DNA of 64,000 bases from Flaccisagitta enflata (GCA_965153355.1 OZ231126.1:31744001-31808000), one strand, 5' to 3'. Shown: positions 19,301 through 25,300, counted from the stretch's first letter. A program made the numbers and translations. The notes: a model not told the origin generated them from the sequence alone.

Positions 19301-22300
19301 TCCCCTATGTAAATTGTACAAGTCCAGGAATTAATATTACTACAAAAATAATAGGCAAAGGGTATAAATTATTTATGAATGTTGTTGAAAGTTGGTACAT
19401 GATGGCATACCTGGAAGTCCATGATGGCATACCTGGAAGTCCATGATGGCATACCTGGAAGTCCATGATGGCATACCTGGAAGTCCATGATGGCATACCA
19501 CAGTGCTTGTTTAGGCCACTCGACAAAGTTTATTTCACCAGACTGTCACCGACCCCCTAAATCCACCCAAATCACCTACACAGTGCTTGTTTAGGCCACT
19601 CGACAAAGTTTATTTCACCAGACTGTCACCGACCCCCTAAATCCACCCAAATCACCTACACAGTGCTTGTTTAGGCCACTCGACAAAGTTTATTTCACCA
19701 GACTGTCACCGACCCCCTAAATCCACCCAAATCACCTACACAGTGCTTGTTTAGGCCACTCGACAAAGTTTATTTCACCAGACTGTCACCGACCCCCTAA
19801 ATCCACCCAAATCACCTACACAGTGCTTGTTTAGGCCACTCGACAAAGTTTATTTCACCAGACTGTCACCGACCCCCTAAATCCACCCAAATCACCTACA
19901 CAGTGCTTGTTTAGGCCACTCGACAAAGTTTATTTCACCAGACTGTCACCGACCCCCTGATGCCTTTTTTTTTTTCAAACCCTGTGTTCAATGCGGCCCC
20001 TCCTCTTACACTGTCTTTTCTAGCCCCCGTCCCACCCACCACCAAAGTCCTCATTTTGAATAAATTATCTACTAAGACATTATTTAATTGCTGATCGAAA
20101 AGAACAAAAAAACGATATCCGTATCATTAAAATGTAGCATCGATACTAGTATCACCGTGTTGCCTAGCTGTGATAGGTAGGAAAAAATGACACAGCATAG
20201 CGACCTATTCTGGGGTGTTATATACACCTAGACTGATATTCCCCTGCATGAGACTAAAAATTCTGTTGGGATTTTTCCGAGAAAGCGCCGTAAAATGCCG
20301 TAATTTCCCGTAAAATTTACATTTTTTAGCGTTTTTCAGCCAATACTCGCTCAAAAACTGCGGCTCTGGTCAGCAAATGGTCTGACAATTACAATTTAGC
20401 ACTGAGACACGTTCATGCAAAAATTTAAGTCAAGCGGAAATCATTTAGTATCATTTTACGCCGTAAAATGCCGTTAAAATAGCAATTTTAAGCGTTTCTT
20501 GAATGTCACTCTCAAATAGCAGGAATTGACTTGAGAACTGACAGAGAAAGGGTATCAGGGCTTAAAACAAACATATATATCGAACTTTTGTCATATAATG
20601 TCAGGATTTGGTGACATATCATGCCGTAAAGCGCCGTTAAGTACTGTTAAAATGACATTTTTGGGGTAATAATTGCTCATACAACTGCTCCACTTTTAAG
20701 AAACAAACAAACTAGGATATTTGAAACCGAGACACATTCTATTCAATTTGTCATCATTTGGCATAATTTCATGCCCAAAAAATGCCGTTAAAATGCCGTC
20801 AAAATAGTACTTTTGACAATTTTTGGGTGACACCCTCTCATATAGCACGCATAAACACTAAATGTGCCAGAAAATGGAAAGTTAGATGTACTGACATCAT
20901 AGATTCAAAACAATGAGTTGATATAAAATCATATCCTTATGCCATAAATAACCGCTAAGTGCCGCTTATTCATCAGAGAAAGACTGTCGTAAATTCTTGG
21001 AAATGAAAATAACAAAGAAGTGGTACCCAGCTACAAGGCTAAAATATTACCAGTTATTGAAAATTAGGATTCCCTAGTCTTGGGAATAGTTCAAATATTT
21101 GCGCAATTTGATGCTAGAACATTTTCTACATTACCATTTCAATCATTCAATACACAACCTAGAGAGTAAAAAGATACAACCTGGAAAATAGGGCTAAATA
21201 CAGCTTAATATTTACGACAGAAAAAGTCCAATGGTCATTTTTTGCAGCTTCTAAGGTGCGTGTGTGTGTGTGTGTGTGTGTGTGTGTGTGTGTGTGTGTG
21301 TGTGTGTGTGTGTGTGTGTGTGTGTGTGTGTGTGTGTATGTGTGTTACTGTATCATTGTGTAAATGTATGAAAGTGCTTTTGCATGGACGCACTAACACG
21401 CATGTTTTCCAGAGCATTATTGTGTGTATGTACGTGCATGCGTGTGTGTGTGCCTGCATGCGTGTGTGAATGTGTGCGTGTGTGAATGTCTCTCTGTGTG
21501 TGTGTGTGTGTGTGTGTGTGTGTGTGTGTGTGTGTGTGTGTGTGTGTGAGTGAGTGTGTCTATAGAAATTAAAGGACGCATCTAATAGTAATAACCGCCA
21601 AATAAAATATTTTCCCATTTCACGGTGTTTTATGGTCATTTTAGTATTTTACAGTCTTTTACGGCATGTAAATGTGAAGTTATCACAACACTTTGTGTTG
21701 AAGCCTTCATCTAAATGTATCTCAGGATCTACCATCCTTTTTTAGGCATTTTAGAAGAATTGCCACACAATATAATGAAATAACACCCAAAAGTCAGTAA
21801 AAAAACCATTTATCATTTTTACGGCATTTTGTACGGCATGAAATGATGCTGAATGATGACGGCTTGCTTTGAGTTTTTTTAAGAGTGTCTCTCGTTGCCA
21901 CAAATACTAAGTTTTATCAGGTTAATCATTGTTGAGCCAGTATTACTCAAAAGAATGCCAATTATGCCATTTTTACGGCATTTTACAGCATTTGACGGCA
22001 TTTTACGGCTTTGCAATGTGACCAAATACAACAATATTTTATGGAACTTGAGCACATGTGCGTTTTAGGCCCCAATTCCCATTTCCTGGCAGTTTTTAAG
22101 ACCATATCCTATAATATGGAAGAGCAACACTTAAAATCAGTCAGAAATGTCATTTTAACGGCATTTAACGGCGTAAAATGATACCATATGACGTCTGCAT
22201 GACTTGAATTTTTACATGAATGTGTCTTAGTGCTGAATTGCAATTGTCAGACCATTTGCTGACCAGAGCCGCTGTTTTTGAGCACGTTTTGGTTGAAAAA

Positions 22301-25300
22301 CGCTCAAAAATGTCAATTTTACGGGAAATTACGACATTTTACGGCGTTTTCTCCAAAAAATCCCAACAGAATTTTTAGTCTCATGCAGGGGAATATCAGT
22401 CTAGGTGTATATAACACCCCAGAATAGGTCGCTATGCTGTGTCATTTTTTCCTAGTTATCACAGCTAGGCAACACGGTGAGTACTAAGGATGACAATGTT
22501 GTACAACTTTCTTTTTTCTTTTGAAACATTGGTTTCTTGTCCGGGCATTGCTTTAATGGACTTTTATGACTTTTTTACTGACTACTGTATGCAAACTGGA
22601 TTTTGAAGAACTAAAGCCTTTTATCATGAGCGTCCTTGCACATTGATAACATGTTGTGTCCATCCATCGGTCTTTCTGTAAGTCTGTCTGCCAGTGGGCA
22701 AACGTACGGATTGTGGAGAAGCGAGAAGCGCCCCCTCTTGGAAGCTGAGTGACAGCGTCGTCAAGTCTTGAAATAAAGATATGAGAAAAATGAAGTTTTC
22801 TTTGGTTGATCAGTTTTATAGTTATCCTGAATCATTTTTCTCTATTTAAGGAAAAAATAACCTAAAATTTGTGTTGGTGTCTCATGAATCTATTATCTAA
22901 GAGTATTTGTTGTCAAAATTTGTCATATTTTTAGTCGCGTGCTACGCGACTCTACACCCCGCTATGTTGGTCCGTCGGTCGGTCGGTCGGTTGGTCGGTC
23001 GGTCGGTCCCCTCTTTACTTTTTTGGCGTTTTTGAGCTTTTTGGGTCTACTGCTCCTGCCCAAATGCTCTTGTGACTTTCTCCTGCACTGCTCCTGCCCA
23101 CCCGCACGCGACTGGGGTAGCCGTGAATCGGCCTTGTTTTTCAAAAAATTACCATTTGAGACAGACTCCTCATGTCAGAACCTTTTAGGGGAAAATCTTT
23201 GCTTCCCAGTAGTAAAGAAAAATCTCTTTGTCTGCCAGTAGGTTGGTCTGTTGGTCAGAAGGTAGGACTTAACAAGGCCGGATACACGACTACCCTAGTC
23301 GCGTGTGGGTGGGCAGGGGCAGTGATGAAGATAGTCACTGGGGCATTTGAACAGGAGCAGTAAGCTCAAAACGCTCAAAAACACCAAGAAATTAGATGGG
23401 GACCGACCGACAGACAGACGGTTGGATGGACGGACAAAGCGGGGTGTAGAGTCATGTCGCGTACCACGCGACTAAAAATTATTTTTACTTTGAAGGCTCA
23501 TCTCCGAGTTTTTAGTCCGTGTTTTTAGACACTACACCCCGCTTTGTCCGTCGGTCGGTCGGTCGGTCGGCCGGTCCCCATTTTACTTCTTTTATGTTTT
23601 TGCGGTCTTTGGCCTCACTGCACTTGCCCAAGTGCTTTAGTAACTCAAATACTGCCCCTGCCCACCCGCACGCGACTAAGGTAGCCGTGTATCCAGCCTT
23701 GTTAGTCGCGGACACGCGACTCTACACCTTGCTGTGTCGGTCGGTCGGTACGTCGGTACATTACGATTTTTTTTAATTCCGAGCGGTTTACGCATTACTG
23801 CTCCTGCCCAACCGTCCGCGACTGGATTACCGTGTATCCGGCCTTGTTTTTCTGCTTATGGCACTTTGCGAAAATCATAATAAGCCGTTGGAAAAGGATC
23901 CAGGACAAAATTGAACTGGTTTGTCATACAATATGGATTGAAGAAGCTTTTTATCACTTTGGGAATTAAAATGCACACAATCCGAGTGTGTGTGTGTGTG
24001 TGTCTCTCTCAAGCTCCGTCCCAAGCGTACCCATAGTTGAACCAAGCAGTTTTTTTAGTTCTCTGTCAATAATTAAAACAAACAAGATTGACAACGAGGG
24101 TTATTCATTGAAAAGATGGGCCGGCATATCAAGTTTACACTGCATAGCTTTCCCTCAATGGAAATGATGCAAAAATTCCCCCTGCATAAGAAATGCCAGA
24201 TAGAAATTGAGTTTCCAAATAATCAGCAGACAAACGCACGTCGAGATCTTAAAATAATGTGAAATTAAAAGTCGTTTATTTCAAAACTGCAAACTTGCCA
24301 CTCCGTGCCACCGAGATTTGAGAAGTTTGGAGCCATGAGAATGAGGAAAACACATCGTCGTCATTGCCACCTACCTTCGAAGACCTTCAAAGTCATTCAA
24401 AGTTAAAAGGTATAATTTTGCTTTGCTGACGCTTCCCATCGATCACCGACCTTGACACGCTCTACCATAGCGACCATGATGCAAAGGGACCCTATTTTCC
24501 ATATAACGTCATGAATCGAGTGGCCTAAGCCTGGTTTTTAACGGGATCACAAATTGGCTAAATTGGTGTACCATGCCTCTGGTAGGCATCCCTCATGGGT
24601 CAGACCATGGTTGAAGCTAAGTTTCATCGAGTTTAAGTCATTTATAAAAAAATCTCAAAAATAATTATACTTCATCATCAGGCAGTGTGCATACCTGGAA
24701 GTCCATGATGGCATACCTGGAAGTCCATGATGGCATACCTGGAAGTCCATGATGGCATACCTGGAAGTCCATGATGGCATACCTGGAAGTCCATGATGGC
24801 ATACCTGGAAGTCCATGATGGCATACCTGGAAGTCCATGATGGCATACCTGGAAGTCCATGATGGCATACCTGGAAGTCCATGAGGCATACCTGGAAGTC
24901 CATGTTGGCATACCTGGAAGTCCATGGTGGCATACCTGGAAGTCCATGATGGCATACCTGGAAGTCCATGATGGCATACCTGGAAGTCCATGATGGCATA
25001 CCTGGAAGTCCATGATGGCATACCTGGAAGTCCATGATGGCATACCTGGAAGTCCATGATGGCATACCTGGAAGTCCATGATGGCATACCTGGAAGTCCA
25101 TGATGGCATACCTGGAAGTCCATGATGGCATACCTGGAAGTCCATGATGGCATACCTGGAAGTCCATGATGGCATACCTGGAAGTCCATGATGGCATACC
25201 TGGAAGTCCATGATGGCATACCTGGAAGTCCATGATGGCATACCTGGAAGTCCATGATGGCATACCTGGAAGTCCATGATGGCACCTGAAGTCCATGATG

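Follow-up and report, generated by a model that had tools for sequence, protein, structure and literature searches.

A recently mobile, gene-less transposon with CAC...GTG ends and a reiterated left terminus, probably of the Transib type

Which enzyme moves a transposon that carries no gene of its own, and how much do its ends tell about the superfamily to which it belongs? The question is raised by a stretch of 64,000 nucleotides from Flaccisagitta enflata (GCA_965153355.1 OZ231126.1:31744001-31808000), called here the window, in which an element of more than 5 kb is present twice (copies 1 and 2; Table 1). We conclude that it is a non-autonomous cut-and-paste DNA transposon, probably of the Transib type, for the movement of which a Transib-type (RAG1-like DDE) transposase would act in trans, the superfamily being called from the sequence of the ends and from the target-site duplications (TSDs).

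Both copies were read directly. They are in the same orientation, with a start-to-start spacing of 17,641 bp, and have in common the start CACAGTGCTTG and the end CAGGCAGTGTG. The boundaries of the element were set at the points where the likeness between the copies stops: the base just outside the left boundary is C in copy 1 and G in copy 2, and the base just outside the right boundary is C and A, respectively. Each copy is bordered by its own exact 5-bp TSD, CATAC for copy 1 and ATAGG for copy 2. Copy 1 was inserted in an array of a 22-bp satellite, the unit of which is CATGATGGCATACCTGGAAGTC; removal of the copy together with one CATAC restores a perfect 22-bp unit, which means that exactly 5 bp were duplicated. 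The whole window was also scanned for CAC...GTG pairs bordered by exact repeats, nine or more matches out of 12 being required in the terminal inverted repeat (TIR). For a TSD of 5 bp this gave three hits; all three correspond to copies 1 and 2, the latter being counted twice because of an extra outer end (see below).

The two copies are nearly identical. The BLAST segments between them showed 98.3-100% identity, and when the left array (see below) was set aside there were 17 mismatches over 4701 aligned columns, i.e. 99.64% identity or 0.36% substitutions, and nine indel blocks, mainly length changes of microsatellites. Could a single repeat have been placed twice without transposition, by segmental duplication or by an assembly artefact? 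There are just two copies, close to each other and in the same orientation, and their surroundings are rich in satellites and tandem repeats. The flanks of copies 1 and 2 are however unrelated, an exact 5-bp duplication of different sequence borders each copy just where the likeness ends, the satellite unit becomes whole again once copy 1 and one CATAC are taken out, and the number of substitutions and indel blocks is unlike what an assembly duplicate would show. With unrelated flanks, separate TSDs and substitutions, such a duplication is excluded, save for a very small residual chance. The two copies are thus what an earlier note on this DNA had taken them to be, i.e. two independent recent insertions: the recurrence of the ~5.2-kb block at 37140-42731, the shared starts and ends and the different exact 5-bp TSDs that it had described were all found again, the last with the agreement of the satellite register. 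The stretch was partly present in 20 of the 23 sequencing runs listed; the best shares were 0.47 and 0.34 (one organism, one study), followed by 0.26-0.05 in marine, plankton or seawater metagenomes; neither group says anything about habitat, copy number or polymorphism.

Two further sites, 14554-14564 and 15623-15633, come close to the end motif. They lie inside a 584-bp direct repeat (14079-14662 and 15150-15731, 99% identical) which contains CTGGCAGTGTG, one mismatch away from the right end of the element; since this repeat runs past both of them, they were rejected as element ends.

The ends of the element are alike over a short distance only. The TIR is 11 bp long, CACAGTGCTTG and CACACTGCCTG matching at nine of 11 positions, with no likeness further in. 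The left heptamer is CACAGTG, the consensus heptamer of the V(D)J recombination signal sequence (RSS), and the right one, read inward, is CACACTG, so that the exact RSS heptamer is confined to the left end. Bases 13-25 of the left end form a 13-mer, TTAGGCCACTCGA, for which 16 matches with at most one mismatch were found against 0.04 expected; 14 of them are direct and belong to the left arrays, and two are inverted, one near the right end of each copy. A second conserved block or a shared nonamer was sought between the end regions, and this 13-mer was the only inverted word of at least 10 bases that they share; there are no terminal direct repeats at the element ends. At the left end the order is heptamer, 17 nt, ACAAAGTTT. 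The two offsets at which a nonamer would be expected (12 and 23 bp from the heptamer) are occupied by ACTCGACAA and TTTATTTCA at the left end, and by GTATAATTA and TTTGAGATT at the right end. Positions 4-11 of the left terminus read AGTGCTTG, those of the right one ACTGCCTG (CTT and CCT at positions 8-10), without an A-rich TR2. One coordinate of the earlier note needed correction here: the inverted motif that it had put at ~24515-24527, ~170 bp inside the right end, does exist, one base further on (24516-24528). The departure of the right heptamer from CACAGTG had escaped it. Its description of the ends as asymmetric stands, as the 13-mer is near the left tip and, inverted, 162-174 bp inside the right end; so does its reading of heptamer, 17 nt and ACAAAGTTT as something other than a canonical 12/23 RSS, no nonamer being present at 12 or 23 bp.

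The element is without coding capacity. The interior of copy 1 contains 48 stop-to-stop open reading frames (ORFs) of at least 45 aa, from which seven coded by microsatellites were left out; none of the 41 tested reached the Pfam cut-off, and the sub-threshold matches numbered four (LAB_N, PT, DUF6490 and Clathrin_bdg). All ORFs of the element of at least 80 aa are either coded by microsatellites or within short repeats. The lack of a transposase ORF, previously claimed, was therefore borne out. The RAG1L/RAG2L gene pair is absent from both copies, and no RAG1L or RAG2L ORF was found within the window. The only Rfam match over 19300-24900, SCARNA7, lay on a GT microsatellite; its score of 25 bits is far below the gathering score (65), and it was taken as due to chance.

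What fills the element is, in part, another one. Each copy contains the same nested inverted-repeat element, the arms of which are ~91% complementary and carry repeated CCGTAAAAT-like motifs on either side of a GT-microsatellite core. Its TSD reads GTA, AGTA or, imperfectly, AGTAT/AGTAC (3, 4 or 5 bp), an ambiguity that results from a 1-bp difference between the copies at the left junction; it could be a CMC/Chapaev-like element (CMC for CACTA/Mirage/Chapaev) or a member of a second Transib-like family. The remaining interior is made of GT and TC microsatellites and of several copies of a short interspersed repeat. This repeat, marked by a (GGTC)n tract and by the conserved motif ACTGC.CCTGCCCA.CCG, occurs in three or four copies and in both orientations at 22913-23857 inside the element, and was also seen elsewhere in the window (407-444, 3822-3918, 7610-7789, 16513-16569 and 55823-55889).

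We could now turn to the assignment to a superfamily (sources marked 'excerpt' are cited from the part of them that was available). Transib elements are set apart from other superfamilies by TSDs of 5 bp, and their termini carry a CACAATG-like heptamer (PMC1131882, excerpt). The element has exact 5-bp TSDs in two out of two copies, and CAC...GTG termini with the heptamers CACAGTG on the left and CACACTG on the right; taken with these published hallmarks, such ends and duplications point to a Transib-type transposon. In a 38-bp TIR consensus drawn from 21 families of insects and sea urchins, the heptamer is followed at 23 (or 12) bp by an A-rich, nonamer-like block (PMC1131882, excerpt). It is not matched here, and is a common rather than a defining feature of Transib: in HzTransib, the TSDs are invariably 5 bp long and the TIRs resemble the RSS heptamer with little or no match to the nonamer (PMC4840297), so that the missing nonamer does not disqualify the present element. 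Non-autonomous Transib elements have long been known, and the class is listed in the RepeatModeler annotation of a copepod genome, with 262 CMC-Transib copies (PMC7878743, excerpt); in the vasa tree (see below), the host of the present element likewise falls beside arthropods.

Several points weigh against this assignment. The inverted repeat is just 11 bp long, with two mismatches, and no A-rich nonamer-like block is present 12 or 23 bp from either heptamer. GC-rich targets are preferred by Transib and RAG (PMC1131882, excerpt), and here both TSDs have 40% GC and the 35-bp sites 49% and 34%, for a window average of 41.7%, a weak point with n = 2. The length of the TSD and the terminal bases vary within Transib, one lineage making duplications of 3 bp and of TA and showing changes in its terminal bases, and assignment rests on the transposase (2026 preprint); the ends alone are thus no proof of membership. 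No transposase was seen in the 64-kb window to which the analysis applies, and only two copies are known. Exact end patterns had no match in collections of metagenome contigs (gapped right end and 25-base left end), viral contigs (both ends) and prokaryote genome contigs (left end). Lastly, 5-bp TSDs are not the privilege of Transib, as Ginger2 too yields duplications of 4 or 5 bp (PMC10045372).

The latter points bear on a possible, though in our estimate rather unlikely, alternative, namely that the partner belongs to another DDE superfamily making 5-bp TSDs: a CMC/Chapaev-like relative, an atypical hAT, Ginger2 or an undescribed family. Calling a superfamily from ends alone is unsafe, and CMC elements, the sister group of Transib, also start with CAC (2026 preprint). 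CMC-Chapaev-3 was far more abundant than CMC-Transib in the copepod genome (7607 copies versus 262; PMC7878743, excerpt), and the nested element found inside the copies also ends in CAC...GTG, its TSD being readable as 3 or 4 bp. Each candidate nevertheless meets an obstacle. CMC TSDs are 2-4 bp long (2026 preprint) against exactly 5 bp in both copies; in hAT, the third terminal base is always G (PMC1131882, excerpt) and the TSD is 8 bp, whereas it is C and 5 bp here; integrase-related groups, with TSDs of 4-6 bp, end in TG...CA or TGT...ACA (PMC10045372), which the CAC...GTG ends do not fit.

A RAG-like (RAGL) transposon carrying RAG1L and RAG2L, of the ProtoRAG type, appears a very improbable partner when compared with a plain Transib. 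RAGL transposons do make 5-bp TSDs and have CAC ends, the conservation of which is limited to ~13-15 bp, and non-autonomous RAGL elements are on record (PMC7204232, excerpt); moreover, the identity of the left heptamer to the RSS consensus goes in the same direction. Against this, the protostome RAGL TIR consensus, CACTWMCAAACKTYKBB, has a conserved AAA at positions 8-10 (TR2) (PMC7204232 and RAGL-A preprint, both excerpts), and the A-rich TR2 is absent here. Arthropods are absent from the hosts named in the available parts of these sources (deuterostomes, molluscs, nemerteans, cnidarians and protists), and the vasa protein encoded in the window groups beside arthropods (see below); the lack of RAG1L and RAG2L ORFs in the window also speaks against it.

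If the Transib-type assignment is accepted, the following mechanism may be proposed. The gene-less element would depend on a transposase supplied in trans from another locus of the genome. This enzyme would recognise ends starting with 5'-CAC, and insertion would take place between target cuts staggered by 5 bp. By analogy with Transib and RAG enzymes, it would nick the DNA at the CAC border and close the flanking DNA into a hairpin, after which the blunt ends of the element would be joined to the target. The two very recent insertions, 17.6 kb apart and in the same orientation, suggest a local hop.

The reiterated left terminus is the sole unusual feature of what is otherwise an ordinary element of a known type. 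In copy 1, the left array has a period of 80 bp, 5.8 copies and 100% matches, and each unit opens with the terminus CACAGTGCTTG; in copy 2, the period is again 80 bp, with 8.8 copies, two of the units being shortened (78 and 73 bp). The 80-bp unit consists of the first 60 bp of the element and of a 20-bp spacer, AAATCCACCCAAATCACCTA, and the partial unit, which comes last, gives way to the unique interior. The difference in size between copies 1 and 2 is largely due to the length of this array. The flank/element junction of copy 2 is itself covered by another tandem duplication, in the 27-bp unit of which 11 bp of flank are joined to the first 16 bp of the element. This duplication yields an extra, truncated CACAGTG outer end at 37113-37128 which is also preceded by ATAGG. 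Neither these tandem structures nor the nested element figured in the earlier note.

The structure of the left array is the outcome expected from an old tandem duplication across a flank/element junction, like the one beside copy 2, followed by mobilisation from the outer end; the number of units would then have changed. A bolder proposal, to which we give only a slender chance, is that the array is a battery of 6-9 working left ends: the right end would be paired with any of the heptamer plus 13-mer signals, the element would change length on jumping and leave solo arrays behind, and junction duplications such as that at 37102-37157 would seed new ones. Among the 15 top-ranked of the 294 papers matched by a full-text search, judged on titles and the openings of abstracts, none described a comparable terminal array in Transib, which is weak evidence of absence.

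Table 1. Coordinates of the transposon copies, their parts and the surrounding gene (positions in the window)
Feature	Position	Strand	Details
Copy 1, non-autonomous element	19499..24689	+	5191 bp
Copy 2, non-autonomous element	37140..42731	+	5592 bp
Left TSD, copy 1 (CATAC)	19494..19498		direct reading and 22-bp satellite register
Right TSD, copy 1 (CATAC)	24690..24694		direct reading
Left TSD, copy 2 (ATAGG)	37135..37139		direct reading
Right TSD, copy 2 (ATAGG)	42732..42736		direct reading
Right terminus, copy 1	24679..24689	-	inward CACACTGCCTG, 9/11 identical to left terminus
Right terminus, copy 2	42721..42731	-	direct reading
Inverted 13-mer TTAGGCCACTCGA, copy 1	24516..24528	-	162-174 bp inside right end
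Inverted 13-mer, copy 2	42558..42570	-	near right end, 162-174 bp inside
Left array, copy 1	19499..19958	+	5 full 80-bp units and 60-bp partial; 6 heptamers
Left array, copy 2	37140..37830	+	8 units and 60-bp partial; 9 heptamers
27-bp tandem duplication, 2.1 copies	37102..37157	+	period 27, 100% matches; spans flank/element junction of copy 2
Nested inverted-repeat element in copy 1	20153..22479		arms ~335 bp (336 nt, 91%), ends CACCGTG...CACGGTG
Nested inverted-repeat element in copy 2	38022..40420		same element as in copy 1
Vasa-like helicase exons	28614-28351, 27815-27597, 12933-12787, 12671-12507, 12250-12074, 11481-11257, 11072-10800, 10675-10544	-	

The two insertions lie in and near a gene for a vasa/DDX4-like DEAD-box helicase, located on the minus strand at 10544-29904, the 5' exon of which (29074-29904) encodes seven CCHC zinc knuckles. 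Copy 1 is inside a ~14.7-kb intron filled with satellites, between exons 27815-27597 and 12933-12787, and copy 2 is ~7 kb upstream of the knuckle exon. The nearest named Vasa proteins are 63-78% identical to the product (the best one 78% over one exon and 64% over the gene); the best match of all is protein P0028, with 66% identity over the gene. A quick, single-gene tree was made from 65 rows, i.e. the window protein and 64 hand-picked hits out of the 120 listed; the 56 left out were fragments, isoforms or additional hits. In this tree, the window protein groups with three marine-survey proteins (Shimodaira-Hasegawa-like approximate likelihood-ratio test, SH-aLRT, 100), beside a clade that holds the four chelicerates (95). 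Taken by itself, this placement would hint at an arthropod of the plankton as the host, without proving it.

The window contains a number of other repeats. The 22-bp satellite in which copy 1 was inserted forms a second array (24689-26575 region) of 67 units and enters, with a 408-bp unique part, into a higher-order repeat found at 18905-19399 and 26081-26575 (97.6% identical); beside the latter repeat is an 18-bp satellite (18026-18901, 48.7 units). A foldback element at 26961-27564 has two arms of ~295 bp, 91% complementary and 18 bp apart; it starts with CAGTGGGG and ends with CCCCACTG, is flanked by TA on both sides, and looks like a miniature inverted-repeat transposable element of the Tc1/mariner type. 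Tc1/mariner was considered for the 5-kb element itself and ruled out, as no TA flanks it; the neighbouring foldback does have CAGTG ends next to TA. An inverted repeat at 44050-46180, with arms of ~1 kb that are 84.5% identical, is related (~79%) to 8244-8893 and constitutes a separate repeat family. A tandem array at 53910-61576 comprises about eight copies of a ~910-bp monomer, 80-98% identical (most pairs 87-98%), each with an open frame of 150-200 aa. Finally, a 238-aa open frame on the minus strand at 61887-62603 has an RVT_1 domain (E = 5e-17) and is a fragment of a retroelement.

If the partner is indeed a live Transib-type transposase, then this genome, which belongs to a marine animal of the plankton and not to one of the insects where Transib has been studied, holds a currently active relative of the ancestral enzyme of RAG1; the near-identity of the copies and their intact scars speak for recent activity. 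Should the left array prove to be a battery of working ends, it would offer a natural case of a RAG-type enzyme choosing one signal among many. The left array and the junction duplication also illustrate how a transposon terminus may seed a tandem array that travels, a small and concrete case of satellite birth. For annotation, the element accounts for 5.2 kb of a vasa-like intron. Current knowledge is not overturned.

Among known systems, the element resembles TransibN of mosquito and Hopper/Kodama of Drosophila, which share with it the 5-bp TSD, the CAC ends, the RSS-like heptamer and the absence of an ORF, and which are moved by a low-copy autonomous partner (PMC1131882, excerpt; 2026 preprint). 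It is however much larger than Kodama (5.2-5.6 kb versus ~1.4 kb), and departs from these non-autonomous Transib elements in several respects: the interior is a patchwork of microsatellites and other repeats, not a transposase gene with deletions, the inverted repeat covers 11 bp as against 37-38 bp, a nonamer-like block is lacking, the two known targets are not GC-rich and the left terminus is reiterated 6-9 times. With RAGL-B (ProtoRAG) and RAGL-A, as far as the available excerpts describe them, it has in common the 5-bp TSD, the invariant CAC, a likeness of the ends within the first dozen bases and the inequality of these ends, but it lacks the A-rich TR2 beside the heptamer and the RAG1L/RAG2L genes. 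Its left heptamer, CACAGTG, is that of the V(D)J RSS consensus (PMC1131882, excerpt); unlike an RSS, it lacks a ACAAAAACC-like nonamer at both 12 and 23 bp, its right heptamer is CACACTG, and it is a mobile element, not the signal of a gene segment. The CAC ends are also those of CMC, whose transposase clade is sister to that of Transib (2026 preprint), but which makes TSDs of 2-4 bp when both copies here have 5 bp. The left array has its counterparts in Tetris TIR-220 of Drosophila virilis and in Xmix/Xstir of Xenopus, where the terminal repeat of a non-autonomous DNA transposon was amplified in tandem (PMC9659126, excerpt). These belong to other families; in the present case, the units all open with the presumed cleavage heptamer, and the array is restricted to one end of a newly moved element.

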